This document shows, piece by piece, positions 41,806-50,094 of a DNA stretch of 56,776 bases. The position numbers were made by a program, and so were the translations under genes. Numbering within the stretch: the first letter of the stretch is position 1; each line of letters opens with the position of its first letter. The notes below the pieces were generated by a model. That model was not told the DNA's origin. It saw nothing but the letters and a program-made list of their open reading frames with translations, and ran no database searches. Source of the stretch: Escherichia phage Seurat; the sequence record NC_027378.1; one strand, written 5' to 3'.

Positions 41806-41847
41806 TTCATAAAGAATTTTATATTGAAGTTATGTTGATCGCAAGGA

Positions 41848-41880
41848 ACAAAAAAGCCCAGGCATAAGGATTCCTGGGCT
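41848..41880 (-). terminator. intrinsic terminator
   Basis: AGCCCAGG-aatccttatg-CCTGGGCT followed by TTTTTT on the minus strand. Confidence 0.6.
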
Positions 41881-42192
41881 CTCTTGATTGTCGGATAGCT
41901 TACTTTGACTGCCGTCTTCGTCTACCCTGGCCTACTTGTACAGCCTCGCCAAAGGCTGGTGACGGTTTGGTACATCTGGCGCCGTCTCGTTAAACATCGT
42001 TTACATCGTTCAGTAAGTTGCGGGTTTACCCTGTCCGCTCCAGGAAGCCCAGCGAAAGTAGTTGCTGTAAGGAGGTACAGCTACCGCTTTCAAGGGCTTG
42101 AGTTAAGCATCGTTCACTAAGTTAATGTTGTTAAATTGTTAAACCTCGTTAACTGTGGTTATCTTAAAGGATGCAGTCTTGAATGGCAAGCT

Positions 42193-42510
42193 TCAATTTT
42201 GCGCGGTTCCCTTTGCCGCTTTTGGTGCTAAAGTACCGTCGTCTAACATCAACTCAAAACCTGTTACTTGATCGGTTGGAACAATAGGGTAATTCATAAT
42301 AGCCATGTGGATACGATTCCCTCCGTCACATTCATCGATGTATTCATTACCCCAATAGTATAAATGCCCATCTCTTCGAATATCCATTGCTGTTGGGAAA
42401 TCTACAAGAATTCTTTTGATTTCTTTTCGTCCTTCTTTATGTAGATTAGTTTCAATACGGATAAGCTCCGCATAAATTGCTTCACAGATAGTGTTTACAA
42501 TACTCATCAT
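42193..42510 (-). CDS. hypothetical protein
   Basis: 105 aa. Confidence 0.4.
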   Translation of the reverse strand: MMSIVNTICEAIYAELIRIETNLHKEGRKEIKRILVDFPTAMDIRRDGHLYYWGNEYIDECDGGNRIHMAIMNYPIVPTDQVTGFELMLDDGTLAPKAAKGTAQN

Positions 42511-42704
42511 TTACCCCTTAAGTTTTGAATCATTCTATCACAGGCAGCTTTTACAGAAGAGTTTTGCCAGTCTTCCTCAATTTGTGAAGGTTCTTCAGGT
42601 GAATAAGCAGCACTAATCAAGCACTGATTATAACCTTCAATATAAGCCTGTTTTGCGGTATCTACTATTGATTGTAAAGCGATATTGAATAATTGTTCAG
42701 ACAT
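42507..42704 (-). CDS. hypothetical small protein
   Basis: Start reset to MSEQLFNIALQ... with RBS GAGGTG; the upstream extension in the track is unlikely. Confidence 0.4.
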   Translation of the reverse strand: MSEQLFNIALQSIVDTAKQAYIEGYNQCLISAAYSPEEPSQIEEDWQNSSVKAACDRMIQNLRGK

Positions 42705-42712
42705 TTTACACC

Positions 42713-42787
42713 TCACAAAATATACATAAACCAGAAATAACCAGCTACGAAAATAGCACCCGCAAATAATTTTAAAATCTCGAACAT
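42713..42787 (-). CDS. hydrophobic micro-protein (24 aa), not in the ORF track
   Basis: MFEILKLFAGAIFVAGYFWFMYIL preceded by RBS GGAGGG at 6 nt spacing. Confidence 0.4.
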   Translation of the reverse strand: MFEILKLFAGAIFVAGYFWFMYIL

Positions 42788-42945
42788 TGTTCCCTCCGTT
42801 AACTTTATGCTGTAAGTATAGCAGGACTTGCGATGTATACAACAACTTTAGACTTGAAATACATCTATAAAATAGCACGATTTGCCTTTACCTCTGATCC
42901 GTCTAGCTGTACTATTAACCCATAAACAGAGCGGAGGATTACAAA

Positions 42946-43170
42946 ATGGTCATGCTGAATAAAGTATATAGCACAATGAGCGCGGATTATAAAGTTGTAC
43001 GTCACCCGCGTACTGGTAAATTTGAAGCATATATCCGTCCAATGGGTGAAGGTTGGATGTATTACGGTACTTATGACGACGCTGAGCAAGCTTATGAAGA
43101 AGCGGAAAGTGCGGCGGAAGCATCCGAAATTATGGCAAGGTACGACATCGATGATTACTATCTTAACTAA
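42946..43170 (+). CDS. small acidic protein on the opposite strand within the leftward block
   Basis: 74 aa; RBS GGAGG; own terminator downstream. Confidence 0.5.
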   Translation: MVMLNKVYSTMSADYKVVRHPRTGKFEAYIRPMGEGWMYYGTYDDAEQAYEEAESAAEASEIMARYDIDDYYLN

Positions 43171-43174
43171 TAAT

Positions 43175-43199
43175 AAAGGGCCGAAAGGCCCTTTATTTA
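43175..43199. terminator. bidirectional intrinsic terminator
   Basis: AAAGGGCC-gaaa-GGCCCTTT followed by TTTATTTAT on plus, T-rich on minus. Confidence 0.6.
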
Positions 43200-45539
43200 T
43201 TCCTCTTCACCTAAGTTTGCCATAATTCCTTCAACATCTTGCGTAATGCGCCAAGCTGCCCCAGTAAATCCCAGTTTAATAGTCTCCTCCCGTGTTACCG
43301 GAACAAGTGCACCCATAGCAACCATTTCCTTGATTGTAGACTCGATTGCAGCGGACAATCCGTGATGATAGTTTTTAAACGCGGACTTACTTGCAAGACG
43401 CGTAGTAATATCACCCCGCGTGATAATACCTTCTTTGCGCAAATCTACACGTTTAACTTTGACCCAGTCTTTAGTTAGATAATTCACACAGACCTGACAC
43501 ATAGTACGGATACGAGCTTCATCGTTAGTCCCGATACCGCCGCTATGCCATTCCTTCATAATAATGTCCTGTCCATGTCGCACAAAGTCCAAAGCCCATT
43601 GCACATGATATGTCTGTACCACCGGATTGATCCAGTTTTCCCCAACTGCTAACAGGGCGGATAGACGTAACACCTTCAGGTGAGCACGGTTCCAGGGCTG
43701 ACGGATTGCTTCGTCTTTGGTTGCGTTAATATTACGGTCACATTCGTCGTTAAACTGATCACATAATGCTTCCGCTTCTGGACTAAACTGCACTTCAATA
43801 CTTTGATGCTTTGCCATTGCGACTAAGGTGTGGTTAACAAGATGGCACACCATATCACGCAAATGCTGATCCATTGTAGTCTGCTGGTTCTTGTTTAAAG
43901 GTGGTCGATCACCTTCATAGCGGACAACATGGAAACGGGATAAGAATCCATCCTCCATCATTTCACGGGTTAACGCTTCAAAAAACGTGTCCGGTGTTGT
44001 TTCGCCCATGATGCTATAGGCCACACCTTGTTGAGCTTCCGTATTATTAGCCTTATCAGAATAAGACATACCACCAACAATAGACATCTGACCGGACTTT
44101 TGATAAACATCGGTAAGATCATTCTTGAAGCTTTGCATCGGTGAACCTGCTGGCGCCGTAGCCATTGCTTTAATAATCTTACCAAACTCACCGTTCAAGT
44201 TGATAAAAGATTGTTTGTCTGCAAAAGATTTACGCAGTGCGGAGCCGGAAGCGCATCGGTCAAATGATACAAAGCTATGAATCTGCGGAAACGGTTCCTG
44301 AAGCTGGCTAACTATATTAGATAGACCACTGTTCAACGTTTCTTTACCAACACCAGAACGAGCAATAAGGACAAAATATCCATTAAGACCGGATTGAGGA
44401 ATCTGCCAAACCTTCCCGCATACGCCAGCCATAAATCCTAGTGCTGTCACAATAGAAATTTCTTTCACTGGTCGGACGGATGCCTTGTAGATGTACTTCG
44501 CAAGCTCCCCAGCAAGTCCCGGCGGCCAGTCAATGGCGGTTGCATCAATAGACGTACTTTCTGCAACTACGGTCTGCCCCTGTGTTGTTTCAACAGTTAC
44601 GGGCATTTCCGCTACCTGTTGCATTGCACTGTGTGCCGCTTGCATACGGGCAGCATAATCCCGCGCCAGCGCCGCTACGTTTTCCTGGGCAATGCGCTCA
44701 CGCTCCATGCGACCGCGACACATACGCAAGCAACGGTCAATATGAACATTGTTCTTATTAGCCTTCTCACGTTTGCCCAGTGCGCTATAACGGAACAGAC
44801 GACGACATTGCTCATTACTTTCCGTGTAAAATGCATACATAGAAATAAGGGCAAGGTCTGCTTCAGACTGGGAAGGGAATCCCATTTCAACCCATTCACC
44901 ATTGAATAGGCGTGCATACTTATCTCCGTTGTCCGCTTCAAGTGCACGCTGGTGAATAGTTGCATCGTCTTCTACCGGATCTTTTTCTACCAGTTCAATT
45001 TCATATGTCTTGCGCTGAAGATCAATTTCATTCACAAGCATAGTAAGATAATGATCGCGTTCGGCAACTGGTTTGTTATAGACAGGATTACCCGTGCAGA
45101 TAATAAAACGCTCCTGACTATAAACTTCGACACCATCACGTCGGCGACCTTTACCGATGTTTCCTCTTAACCACAGGTGAACGCCCAAGCCTGAGCGACT
45201 TACTTCGGTGTAAGTGTCGAACGCAGTCATGATCTGTTCGAAGCGACGCAATTGCTCCGGCGTAGTGTGCTTCTTGGGGTCCGGTTCATTGGTTGCGTTC
45301 TTCACATCCAGGTCGATGCAGGTGAACGGGTCTTGTGCAGTAAGCACGAAGCCAATATAAGGTTTATTGAAATGAGCGGCGCAACCTTTGGCAGCTTCAA
45401 ACGTCATAAGCATATCCGGATCGGTAACGTCCGCCGCCATCAAACGTCCAATATCGTTATCCCATACGAGCGGCTTTTTGTCCGTATCGGCGACAGCCCA
45501 TTGTGGGAAAGCTTTAATTTCAGCGGGAAACAGTTCCAT
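43197..45539 (-). CDS. DNA primase-polymerase (AEP-type) fused to a C-terminal helicase/NTPase
   Basis: N-terminal FTCIDLDV and SGLGVHLW primase motifs; PriCT-like SEADLALISMYAFYTE; Walker A LIARSGVGKET. Confidence 0.75.
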   Translation of the reverse strand: MELFPAEIKAFPQWAVADTDKKPLVWDNDIGRLMAADVTDPDMLMTFEAAKGCAAHFNKPYIGFVLTAQDPFTCIDLDVKNATNEPDPKKHTTPEQLRRFEQIMTAFDTYTEVSRSGLGVHLWLRGNIGKGRRRDGVEVYSQERFIICTGNPVYNKPVAERDHYLTMLVNEIDLQRKTYEIELVEKDPVEDDATIHQRALEADNGDKYARLFNGEWVEMGFPSQSEADLALISMYAFYTESNEQCRRLFRYSALGKREKANKNNVHIDRCLRMCRGRMERERIAQENVAALARDYAARMQAAHSAMQQVAEMPVTVETTQGQTVVAESTSIDATAIDWPPGLAGELAKYIYKASVRPVKEISIVTALGFMAGVCGKVWQIPQSGLNGYFVLIARSGVGKETLNSGLSNIVSQLQEPFPQIHSFVSFDRCASGSALRKSFADKQSFINLNGEFGKIIKAMATAPAGSPMQSFKNDLTDVYQKSGQMSIVGGMSYSDKANNTEAQQGVAYSIMGETTPDTFFEALTREMMEDGFLSRFHVVRYEGDRPPLNKNQQTTMDQHLRDMVCHLVNHTLVAMAKHQSIEVQFSPEAEALCDQFNDECDRNINATKDEAIRQPWNRAHLKVLRLSALLAVGENWINPVVQTYHVQWALDFVRHGQDIIMKEWHSGGIGTNDEARIRTMCQVCVNYLTKDWVKVKRVDLRKEGIITRGDITTRLASKSAFKNYHHGLSAAIESTIKEMVAMGALVPVTREETIKLGFTGAAWRITQDVEGIMANLGEEE

Positions 45540-45545
45540 ATTAAA

Positions 45546-45749
45546 TTAAGACCTCCGACGCTTATCGCCTTGCATTGCTATAAGTGCTGGCTCAGCAATT
45601 TCGCGCACGTATACAAATACGTTAGCGATACGAACAGCTCCAGGAAGTATATCTCGATTGCGGCACAACTTATAACGACTAACCCCGAAACGGGCTTCAA
45701 TCTCTGATGTGGTTATATATTTAGCATCAAACTCGTCTTGTGCAGTCAT
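45546..45749 (-). CDS. small helix-turn-helix DNA-binding protein (excisionase/AlpA-like)
   Basis: YITTSEIEARFGVSRYKLCRNRD HTH pattern; RBS AGGAGGAG. Confidence 0.55.
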   Translation of the reverse strand: MTAQDEFDAKYITTSEIEARFGVSRYKLCRNRDILPGAVRIANVFVYVREIAEPALIAMQGDKRRRS

Positions 45750-47551: not shown

Positions 47552-47553
47552 AT

Positions 47554-47730
47554 TTATTTCCTTACGAACACAGAGCCGACGAATAATGTTGATTGAGTAG
47601 CAGCTTGCTCGATTAATTCGCCAACAAGCTGGGACTGCGTCAGAGGCTTAAGGCCTACTTTGGCGCGAGCTTCATTTACACGACGTTGAAGGTCTTTTAG
47701 GTATTGAGTTGCGAAACTATCTAATTGCAT
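47554..47730 (-). CDS. small protein (58 aa), not in the ORF track
   Basis: MQLDSFATQYLKDLQRRVNEARAKVGL...; stop abuts the next start. Confidence 0.4.
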   Translation of the reverse strand: MQLDSFATQYLKDLQRRVNEARAKVGLKPLTQSQLVGELIEQAATQSTLFVGSVFVRK

Positions 47731-47785
47731 CTTCTTATCCTTAGGGCTCCCGCAGAAGCCCGTCAGTGAACAGTGTGGTTATAGA

Positions 47786-47899
47786 TTATGCCAGTGAGTA
47801 CCTTGCTTTTAATTTTTGGTTTGCTGCGATAATTTTACATACAGGTATAACAACCAGAAGATCATTATAGTCCAGCCAGAATTGAATGAGCGCCTGCAT
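47786..47899 (-). CDS. micro-protein (37 aa), not in the ORF track
   Basis: ATG preceded by GGAGGG; start overlaps the stop of the 47904 gene. Confidence 0.3.
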   Translation of the reverse strand: MQALIQFWLDYNDLLVVIPVCKIIAANQKLKARYSLA

Positions 47900-47903
47900 T
47901 TAA

Positions 47904-48604: not shown

Positions 48605-49108
48605 TCAGCTATTTCTGATATTCTTTAGAGCTTGTGTACAAAAGAAAACATCCAGCAAAACAAGTTTTCCGTCTTTTACCGCCACATTGCGGGGACTGAT
48701 TTCAAACCACATTTGCGGACCAATATTAGCGCAAGCATCCAAAGCTTCCAGGAGCACATCTTTAATGTCTTGAGCCAGGTCGCTATTACTGAAAGCATCA
48801 TATAGATAGCTATAGTTGTCATATGTGTTACGCGGCATCTCTAACCCTGCGCACAAGCTGCGGAGTTGTTTATAGAGTGCGTATTGCTCAGGTTGTAAAG
48901 AGCTTTTTAAGCTGCGGACACGAGGGTAATAATCCATTTCGTAGACACCTGTGTCTATCATTGTGACATGGGGAAATAATTCATGCTCAGGAAACCATCC
49001 CCACGCCATGCATTCTTTAATAGGGTCGCAAGATTTTAGAAGTACGCGACCTGAGTCTAGAAGGTATGCCTTGGTGAAAGCGCCCTTGCCAATTAGTTTA
49101 GTAGCCAT
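48605..49108 (-). CDS. small protein kinase-like protein (atypical)
   Basis: Start reset to MATKL... with RBS AAGGAG; Gly-rich loop IGKGAFTKAY, VLLK, EISPRNV catalytic-loop-like, LLDVF DFG-like. Confidence 0.4.
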   Translation of the reverse strand: MATKLIGKGAFTKAYLLDSGRVLLKSCDPIKECMAWGWFPEHELFPHVTMIDTGVYEMDYYPRVRSLKSSLQPEQYALYKQLRSLCAGLEMPRNTYDNYSYLYDAFSNSDLAQDIKDVLLEALDACANIGPQMWFEISPRNVAVKDGKLVLLDVFFCTQALKNIRNS

Positions 49109-49441
49109 GTTGTGCTCCTTAATGTGGTTAAGTAGTATTGCTTTGTTGAAGTAATAATAGCCTTGCATCGTGATATTGAATAGGCCAAAAGTGCTATTTT
49201 AGATCACTATTACATCTACAGCTTTGCAGTAACGCTACGCTAAAAATGCAAAGTCTTACGTTTGCTAAACATGTAGATTTTGTGCACATCACTCTTAGTA
49301 CGTATAACGTCTATTATGTTAAATAGCTAACCTATTGATTTATGGTATGCCCTACGTGCGGTTGGATGAATGTCGTGTCTAAGTCTTTGTTTTAAAAGGT
49401 GCTAAAAATTTGATGGTGGAAAACTGTAAAAGTACATGTCA

Positions 49442-49471
49442 TTAACTGACATAAAATGTTGTCAGTATAAA
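49442..49471 (+). promoter_or_regulatory. candidate rightward promoter with a palindromic operator in the spacer
   Basis: TTAACT-N18-TATAAA; spacer holds CTGACAT-aaa-ATGTTGTCAG. Confidence 0.3.
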
Positions 49472-49556
49472 TGCCACGTTTGGCCTAGACATAGATCAAG
49501 TCATGTCGTACTATATAGTCAAAGGAAAGATAAAGCCGAAAGGCGGAGGAAATAAA

Positions 49557-49707: not shown

Positions 49708-49851
49708 ATGACACGCAAATACAGGCTTACACGTGCACAGCACGCGTTATTATTGCAGGTTATGCGCATGGAGTACGAAGAGACTACATGGGCGCAAGCT
49801 ATGCAGACAGGGCGCGAGTTCTACGCGCAACTAATAGCACAAAATGCCTAG
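49708..49851 (+). CDS. small protein (47 aa), not in the ORF track
   Basis: TAATATG arrangement with the previous gene; RBS GAGG. Confidence 0.35.
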   Translation: MTRKYRLTRAQHALLLQVMRMEYEETTWAQAMQTGREFYAQLIAQNA

Positions 49852-49908
49852 ACAACATGATCGGTCTGGTGGATACTACACACATCAACCAAATAGTGGA
49901 GGTACAAA

Positions 49909-50094
49909 ATGTTAATCTTAATCATGATGGTCGTTGCGGTAGTGGGCCCACTGGTGGCACTGATTGTAACCGAAGTATGTGATGCTAAATGGGATCGCAA
50001 ATACAACGAAGTAATGGAACAGCGGTATGCAGAGCGCCGCGTAAGGAAATGGGAACAGCGCTATAACGCACACAGCGACACGCTAGCGAGCTAA
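49909..50094 (+). CDS. small membrane protein
   Basis: 61 aa; N-terminal TM helix; RBS GGAGG. Confidence 0.45.
   Translation: MLILIMMVVAVVGPLVALIVTEVCDAKWDRKYNEVMEQRYAERRVRKWEQRYNAHSDTLAS

Follow-up and report, generated by a model that had tools for sequence, protein, structure and literature searches.

The small rightward gene that faces the primase/helicase gene of Escherichia phage Seurat encodes, as judged from profile searches and a structure model, a free-standing AP2-fold domain that is related to the DNA-binding module of phage HNH_3-AP2 endonucleases. This gene is the ortholog of gp62 of phage CAjan and is referred to here as gp62. Our tentative reading is that its product acts by binding protein, as a small acidic decoy or inhibitor of the DNA-mimic type; such an effector would be built on an AP2 scaffold and co-expressed with the genes of the main control region, and would no longer work as a classical DNA binder. 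Classical DNA binding is doubted because the protein is acidic, because its conserved charged residues are mostly acidic and because DNA-contact positions have been lost. All coordinates refer to the window, that is the whole stretch of 56,776 nucleotides in sequence record NC_027378.1.

A conserved rightward gene facing the primase gene

The gene and its immediate surroundings comprise the following features:
42946..43170, plus strand: gp62 coding sequence, 74 aa with ATG start; predicted stand-alone AP2-fold domain with acidic helix and tail
42933..42937, plus strand: Shine-Dalgarno sequence GGAGG, 8 nt ahead of the gp62 ATG and kept in all relatives
43197..45539, minus strand: primase/helicase gene, the convergent neighbour, 780 aa, Pfam NrS1-1_pol-like_HBD

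CAjan is 96.9% identical to positions 42000-44000 of the window, and ~30 other Seuratvirus (Queuovirinae) genomes are 90-95% identical. In CAjan the orthologous product (YP_009196856) is annotated as 'hypothetical protein', and the ORF at 42946-43170(+) belongs to phrog_22269. The initial annotation had described an acidic 74-aa gene with a GGAGG ribosome binding site, which converges on the primase-helicase gene and is the sole plus-strand gene between 21 and 49 kb. Each of these points holds: the ORF encodes a protein with a pI of 4.42 and a net charge of -7.4, the primase ORF faces gp62 with 26 bp separating the stop codons, and the CAjan RefSeq record has gp62 as the only plus-strand gene among gp26-gp70. 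Two further tiny plus-strand ORFs are called by some annotators, one of 30 aa at 42833-42925 and one of 53 aa at ~41959-42120. The former was rejected as a gene, since stop codons interrupt it in the divergent relatives L004, L011 and L013; the latter, which is called in the BASEL annotations, falls within non-coding sequence, where substitutions occur as compensatory changes in RNA helices. The search for tRNA and tmRNA genes was negative.

Comparison of nine close relatives indicates that gp62 is a real gene under purifying selection. Mean dN is 0.016 as compared to a mean dS of 0.135 (ratio ~0.12), and the variable sites are distributed 6/3/14 over codon positions 1, 2 and 3. By tblastn, gp62 was detected in 32 close Seuratvirus records at 93-97% identity. 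Distant orthologs at 40-57% identity, which come from Salmonella phage STP-SP5 and from metagenomic ~60-kb contigs, occupy the same position in the same orientation, between the primase gene and a variable leftward cassette. The GC content of gp62 is typical (0.427 as compared to 0.446±0.047 for 225-nt windows). Taken together, the 32 records, the syntenic distant orthologs, the purifying selection and the ordinary GC content identify gp62 as a core gene of the E. coli-type Seuratvirus clade and not as a recent insertion. Accordingly, the check for presence or absence in related phages, as proposed in the initial annotation, uncovered no polymorphism among close relatives, and every divergent relative examined carries the gene as well. 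One apparent gp61-gp62 fusion protein, P0004, was discarded because it stems from a fold-back artefact of assembly where a 1218-bp contig ends; in its source (L018 1069-1206, ENA contig k141_29406) the N-terminus of gp61 is joined to the C-terminus of gp62 at the micro-homology CA(A/G)GCTTAT.

Literature searches covering promoters, CAjan, Seurat and the primase, and AP2 in phages returned nothing on gp62 or on transcription in Seuratvirus.

A predicted transcription unit with its own promoter and terminator

We infer that gp62 constitutes an independent transcription unit with its own sigma-70-type promoter. The relevant elements are:
42887..42915, plus strand: predicted gp62 promoter with -35 TTTACC, 17-nt spacer and -10 TACTAT, from the alignment of relatives and a position weight matrix (PWM)
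42815..42842, minus strand: predicted leftward promoter with -35 TTGTAT, 16-nt spacer and -10 TATACT (TTGCAT and TATAAT in relatives)
42713..42787, minus strand: unannotated 24-aa hydrophobic ORF MFEILKLFAGAIFVAGYFWFMYIL with ribosome binding site GGAGGG, first gene of the leftward unit
43172..43197, both strands: predicted bidirectional intrinsic terminator common to gp62 and the primase gene, a hairpin with compensatory stem changes, also annotated in phage SA80RD

The 157-bp gap left of gp62 holds two predicted promoters arranged back-to-back, with their -35 hexamers 44 bp apart. Promoters were scored with an approximate sigma-70 matrix together with the alignment of relatives, and both narrowly miss the 9/12 cut-off of a consensus scan; among 567,410 window positions, the PWM ranks the leftward promoter 79th and the gp62 promoter 131st. 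The latter, which is of the sigma-70 type, is located 23 nt upstream of the Shine-Dalgarno-ATG region. Its -10 hexamer (42910-15) is invariant in all relatives aligned, and its -35 hexamer (42887-92) reads TTTACC here, TTTACA in L008 and TAGACA in L011. An alternative pair, TTGAAA at 42854 and TAAAAT at 42868, was rejected as the gp62 promoter due to wrong spacing and a non-conserved -10 element: the counterpart of TAAAAT is TGAAAT in CAjan and is deleted or altered in L004, L011 and L013. On the minus strand, the leftward promoter has its -35 at 42842-37 and its -10 at 42820-15. The unit to its left begins with the 24-aa ORF, followed by the gp61 and gp60 homologs. This ORF is called in no record seen; it is kept in L004 and L011, and its version in STP-SP5 reads MFEFVKIFASVIFIALYFWLMYWV.

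The initial annotation had also considered that the gp62 transcript is antisense to the promoter region of the leftward operon. This idea is not supported: since the two promoters diverge back-to-back, with the leftward one lying upstream of the rightward one, the gp62 mRNA would not be antisense to the leftward promoter.

At the other end of the gene, the hairpin AATAAAGGGCC-GAAA-GGCCCTTTATT (43172-43197) has a perfect 11-bp stem and occupies the 26 bp that separate the stop codons. Its calculated fold energy is -17.2 kcal/mol on the plus strand (z -4.4) and -16.8 kcal/mol on the minus strand (z -2.7), and none of 200 shuffles was as stable. A U-rich run follows the stem on either strand; that is, the GC-rich hairpin is placed between an A-tract and a T-tract, which is the sequence pattern of a bidirectional terminator. 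In distant relatives the stem is preserved by compensatory changes (GGGTC/GACCC in L004, GGGGC/GCCCC in L011), and the annotators of phage SA80RD marked terminators at the gp62-primase junction. The symmetric hairpin, the U-rich tails on both strands and the compensatory changes thus argue for the bidirectional terminator common to both genes that had been proposed earlier. Searches of the whole window against Rfam gave nothing at gathering score; close to the terminator, at 43166-43247, there were sub-threshold matches to terminator-like sRNAs only. Likewise, the earlier suggestion of an independently regulated gene is supported by the conserved predicted promoter, the gene's own Shine-Dalgarno sequence, the bidirectional terminator and the elements in common with the promoters at 49.2-49.9 kb described below.

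The terminator also marks a mosaic junction, as several Seuratviruses align with the window as far as position 43201 and diverge beyond it. The C-terminal half of the primase (43200-44399) occurs as two alleles, with at least 99% and ~61% amino-acid identity, respectively.

Promoter elements shared with the main control region

Four stretches of sequence define a putative promoter class to which the gp62 promoter belongs:
42872..42886, plus strand: upstream box ATAGCACGATTTGCC, which abuts the -35 of gp62
42847..42867, no strand assigned: 21-bp block lying between the divergent promoters, with the inverted repeat TAGA-N11-TCTA (42849-42867)
49183..49218, minus strand: second module of inverted repeat and box, with TATTCA-17-TATTAT, AGGAG and an ATG at ~49108
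49834..49877, plus strand: third box copy, with the box at 49834-49848, TAGACA-17-GATACT, GGAGG and an ATG at 49909

In the window there are exactly three occurrences of the box, ATAGCAC-N4-KGCC, as compared to 0.06 expected, for a pattern that was defined post hoc. All three copies adjoin a -35 hexamer, which is followed by a 17-nt spacer, a -10 hexamer, a Shine-Dalgarno sequence and an ATG. All relatives keep the 21-bp block at 42847-42867, which is found at no other place in the window. The repeat TAGA-N11-TCTA is present only twice in the window, at gp62 and at 49200-49218, and thus at two of the three box sites. In the second module it is accompanied by the box at 49197-49183(-); its arms are the same in CAjan and in the window phage, and its spacer differs. 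A degenerate fourth member of the class, consisting of AATGCCACGTTTGGCC and TAGACA-17-TACTAT, is found at 49470-49514.

These shared elements suggest that gp62 forms part of one small regulon with the genes that begin in the main divergent control region (49.2-49.9 kb), and it is probably co-expressed with them. The control-region genes are probably early genes. PHROG and Pfam searches with the other genes behind promoters of the box class yielded no known function.

Two observations concern neighbouring genes. The second module implies that the 187-aa ORF at 48605-49168 truly begins at ~49108, after AGGAG. Directly upstream of the primase gene lies a 67-aa gene (45546-45749, minus strand; phrog_11967) without a match in Pfam. 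Its positional counterpart in phage yong3 encodes 65 aa, is located two genes upstream of the primase gene and is annotated as 'regulatory protein cox'. The 67-aa protein is a candidate for binding the TAGA-N11-TCTA repeats.

The slot after the primase gene in related phages

A small gene that converges on the primase gene is also present in Hafnia phage yong3 (Seuratvirus), Providencia phage PSTCR4 (Craquatrovirus) and phage 9g (Nonagvirus). The respective products of 102, 59 and 76 aa are each strongly acidic by residue count. Homology of these proteins to gp62 was not detectable (hhalign probabilities all <1%), and no AP2 similarity was detected in them either; the AlphaFold2 model of the 9g protein (pLDDT 52) is too poor for fold comparison. 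In Pseudomonas phage PaMx25 there is no small gene in this slot. A different occupant in place of gp62 is seen only when sister genera or divergent species are compared.

Phage yong3 is particularly informative. It keeps the TAGA-N11-TCTA repeat and the ATAGCAC box upstream of its unrelated 102-aa acidic slot gene, and tblastn found no gp62 homolog in its genome. Because yong3 retains the control elements in the absence of gp62, these elements are not a private operator of gp62, and the 21-bp block was dismissed as its exclusive operator. The co-occurrence of operator and regulator gene, which characterizes a divergently transcribed autoregulator with an intergenic operator, does not hold here, with yong3 being the counter-case. 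From this comparison, gp62 is better seen as the cargo of a conserved expression slot rather than as the regulator of the slot.

These data also bear on the earlier proposal of a moron-like insertion, which survives in part. In the strict sense it does not apply, given the presence of gp62 in all 32 close records, its typical GC content and the purifying selection. In a broad sense it stands, as the slot holds non-homologous acidic genes in yong3, PSTCR4 and 9g.

A candidate non-coding RNA and HNH genes in the vicinity

The leftward cassette between gp62 and a candidate non-coding RNA consists of 2 to 9 small genes and varies among relatives. This RNA, which is located ~750 bp left of gp62 and may merit more attention than gp62 itself, is represented by one feature:
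41846..42189, minus strand: candidate structured non-coding RNA of ~300 nt, flanked by the gp60 homolog and the RusA/PDDEXK gene

Its predicted sigma-70-like promoter (42189-42161, minus strand) reads TTGCCA-17-TAAGAT here and TTGACA-17-TAATAT in relatives, and a putative intrinsic terminator of -22 kcal/mol is present at 41883-41852. In a 5-sequence alignment, 16 of the 64 predicted base pairs show compensatory changes. Shuffled controls gave 7.6±1.9, with none of 500 reaching 16, and slid controls gave 2-6. The best-supported helix is formed by 42099-42083 and 42062-42045. No matching family was found in Rfam. The region contains the repeats GTTAAACATCGTTTAC (three copies) and CATCGTTCAGTAAGTT (two copies), and an alternative reading of 41846-42189 is that of a replication origin or iterons.

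HNH_3-AP2 homing endonuclease genes occur at scattered sites in relatives (L002 1326-1808, L003 32971-33453, L014 735-1358), among them sites before the primase gene and near RusA in SA80RD, and before the primase gene in yong3. The site of the CAjan endonuclease gene gp67 is empty in the window, leaving a gap at 47552-47903.

An AP2 fold with unusual acidity

The AP2 relationship of gp62 emerges from several searches. Residues 17-59 match the Pfam AP2 family (PF00847) with 17.3 bits (E 0.0059), which is under the gathering cut-off of 33.3 bits. A phmmer search against 1.84 billion proteins returned matches other than orthologs at E-values from 1.4e-9 to 1e-3, and these are multi-copy AP2 proteins according to Pfam (E 1e-56 to 1e-12). 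The matches at E 1.4e-9, 4.9e-7 and 1.8e-4 are to proteins with Pfam AP2 hits at 1e-56 to 1e-23 and amount to significant AP2 similarity. Alignment of the gp62 family profile with the AP2 alignment gave an hhalign probability of 96.9%. The best profile matches in the PDB are WRI1, ERF096 and AtERF1, which are weak (E 0.013-0.38).

The AlphaFold2 model of gp62 (pLDDT 82.6) comprises strands at residues 7-9, 13-19, 26-32 and 38-43 and a helix at 46-71; it contains the three-stranded antiparallel beta-sheet packed on one alpha-helix that is characteristic of AP2. Foldseek searches with the model found no PDB match at E<=0.001, and in BFVD they retrieved, apart from gp62, only weak hits to small, uncharacterised phage proteins.

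Among phage proteins, gp62 weakly matches internal parts of the HNH endonuclease families phrog_99 and phrog_953, which together with CAjan gp67 are its nearest matches beyond its own family. It is 33% identical to the AP2 tail of gp67 over 48 aa (BLASTP, E 2e-5). Pfam recognizes HNH_3 and a C-terminal AP2 domain in gp67, and the AP2 signature is weak there, as it is in gp62. HNH_3 scores E 6e-16 and 1e-19 in gp67 and SA80RD_62, respectively, and Pfam detected no HNH domain in the 74-aa gp62.

The charge of the protein is distributed unevenly. For the E. coli clade, residues 1-43 (the sheet half) carry +2.6, and residues 44-74 (helix and tail) carry -10.2. Orthologs range from -2.5 to -12.3 in net charge, and in the STP-SP5 and P0010 lineages the sheet half is net negative as well. 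Invariant or near-invariant in the family are the N-terminus MVMLNKVYS and residues D14, Y15, R31, W37, D44, A49, E54 and E61. The conserved acidic residues are thus D14 and E61, which are invariant, and D44 and E54, which are nearly so; the conserved basic residues are the invariant R31 and the nearly invariant K6. The sheet of the E. coli clade additionally keeps K16 and K25, besides R31 and W37.

For comparison with a DNA-bound AP2 domain we used the base-contacting residues of AtERF1, which we take to be R150, R152, W154, E160, R162, R170 and W172 in structure 1GCC. In the hhalign register, in which the alignment of strand 1 is uncertain, one of the seven is retained, namely R31 as the equivalent of R162. 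W37 is invariant, yet it aligns to R170, and the other contact positions are occupied by V, H, T or Y and are variable. The C-terminal tails of the orthologs (YDIDDYYLN, FDEPDYDFCY, FDDYNFGYC, SDFY) drift in sequence and keep an acidic-aromatic character; in the gp62 model the tail has low confidence values (pLDDT 43-53).

Possible functions of gp62

How could an acidified AP2 domain act? Its box-class promoter would drive expression of gp62 alongside the genes at 49.2-49.9 kb, and the terminator would insulate this unit from the operon of the primase. If gp62 is a protein-binding effector, its effector surface could combine the acidified AP2 helix with the acidic-aromatic tail at the C-terminus and the invariant N-terminus MVMLNKVYS, and would be directed against some host or phage nucleic-acid enzyme. 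The acidity of gp62 is by itself no proof of mimicry.

Most AP2 domains with a characterised role are DNA binders. The close rival of the effector reading, only somewhat less likely, is that gp62 is a sequence-specific, nuclease-free AP2 DNA binder that serves as a transcription regulator or roadblock, with possible sites at the adjacent divergent promoter pair, at other promoters of the box class or in host genes. The AP2 homology and fold, the likeness to the DNA-binding domain of homing endonucleases and the divergent promoters with conserved elements between them are all in line with such a role, as are the charge of +2.6 of the E. coli-clade sheet and its conserved K16, K25, R31 and W37. 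Moreover, phage AP2 proteins with a DNA-silencing role exist (bioRxiv 10.64898/2026.02.23.707548). However, a net charge of -7 to -12, with the sheet itself net negative in two ortholog lineages, and the substitution of the majority of DNA-contact positions argue against DNA binding. The persistence of inverted repeat and box in yong3, which has no gp62 homolog, points in the same direction, and the CapR domain, which the DNA-silencing CasPR proteins need in addition, is missing from gp62.

The acidic-aromatic C-terminal tips of SSB and T7 gp2.5 provide an analogy for the gp62 tail. An accessory factor of the replisome, whose tail mimics these tips and docks to the adjacent primase-helicase, to the polymerase or to host SSB-client proteins, would account for the tail remaining acidic-aromatic despite sequence drift, and gp62 always adjoins the primase gene. 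The slot proteins of 9g and PSTCR4 have acidic-aromatic ends, too; that of yong3, however, lacks such a tail. Since the tail of gp62 is also the part modelled with low confidence and adjacency to the primase gene is possibly just inherited synteny, we consider a replisome role improbable. Still less likely is that gp62 is what remains of a domesticated HNH-AP2 homing endonuclease and is functionless or acts as an anti-homing or immunity factor on endonuclease target sites: its closest phage matches beyond its own family, the gain and loss of HNH genes around the region in relatives and the mosaic junction between primase alleles at the terminator fit this idea, but purifying selection and own expression signals across deep divergence contradict a dead remnant, gp62 is present with or without HNH genes, and its acidity speaks against tight occupancy of DNA.

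Returning to the protein-binding effector, the slot as a whole allows a broader and distinctly speculative proposal. The post-primase slot of enterobacterial Queuovirinae could be a conserved, co-regulated site, recognizable by the promoter class with inverted repeat and box, at which unrelated small acidic effectors are swapped. Its occupant in the Seuratviruses of E. coli would be an acidified homing-endonuclease AP2 domain, which might serve as a decoy, either mimicking DNA or resembling an SSB tail, against a nucleic-acid enzyme or a defence system of the host. In every Seuratvirus record seen, gp62 carries the label 'hypothetical protein', and these records include several BASEL phages used for work on defence systems. 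The acidified, nuclease-free AP2 domain, the slot and the promoter class make gp62 a testable candidate for a function in host takeover or anti-defence. If the decoy reading is true, gp62 is a DNA-binding fold recycled as a protein inhibitor; if it is false, gp62 is one more small phage DNA-binding protein.

Comparison with known systems

New in the present analysis are the assignment of the fold, the link to HNH-AP2 endonucleases, the uncommon acidity of the protein, the promoter class and the concept of the slot. Free-standing phage AP2 proteins and bidirectional terminators are already known kinds, and the gene itself had been annotated as encoding a hypothetical protein.

As compared to the AP2/ERF domain (PF00847; AtERF1, 1GCC/2GCC; TEM1, 7ET4; WRI1, 7WQ5), gp62 scores below the Pfam gathering threshold, is strongly acidic and has most of the DNA-contacting Arg and Trp residues replaced. 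It adds a strand at the N-terminus and, at the C-terminus, a long acidic helix with a tail, and it is a single free-standing 74-aa protein of a lytic phage. The arm-type DNA-binding domain of tyrosine integrases (HPI integrase, 3JTZ) is more remote: its similarity to gp62 is weaker than that of plant AP2 domains, and gp62 is devoid of a catalytic domain.

With the HNH_3-AP2 homing endonucleases CAjan gp67 and SA80RD_62, gp62 shares the phage genus, the weak AP2 signature and, in the case of gp67, 33% identity over 48 aa. In contrast to them, it has no HNH nuclease and is net acidic where the endonuclease domain is basic. It occupies a fixed core position with its own predicted promoter and terminator, whereas the endonucleases are sporadic selfish insertions.

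Morons of lambdoid and HK97-type phages are extra genes with their own promoter and terminator that are placed between conserved genes. Likewise, gp62 would be an autonomous promoter-gene-terminator unit, opposite in orientation to its neighbours, with unrelated genes in the slot of sister genera. Unlike morons, it is missing from none of the 32 close records and lacks a compositional anomaly, and the phage is lytic.

The CasPR anti-CRISPR repressors are phage proteins that combine CapR and AP2 domains, the AP2 domain being required to silence cas genes (bioRxiv 10.64898/2026.02.23.707548). They depend on the Cys-rich CapR domain and on basic AP2 arginines, and they are found in prophages of Bacillota (bioRxiv 10.64898/2026.02.23.707548). 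Like them, gp62 is a phage-encoded AP2 protein without a nuclease; unlike them, it has neither the CapR domain nor the basic AP2 arginines.

Finally, gp62 resembles T7 Gp2 in its size of ~7-8 kDa, its strongly negative charge, its predicted sheet-plus-helix architecture and its probably early expression. T7 Gp2, a small acidic phage protein made of a sheet and one helix, is an inhibitor of RNA polymerase.
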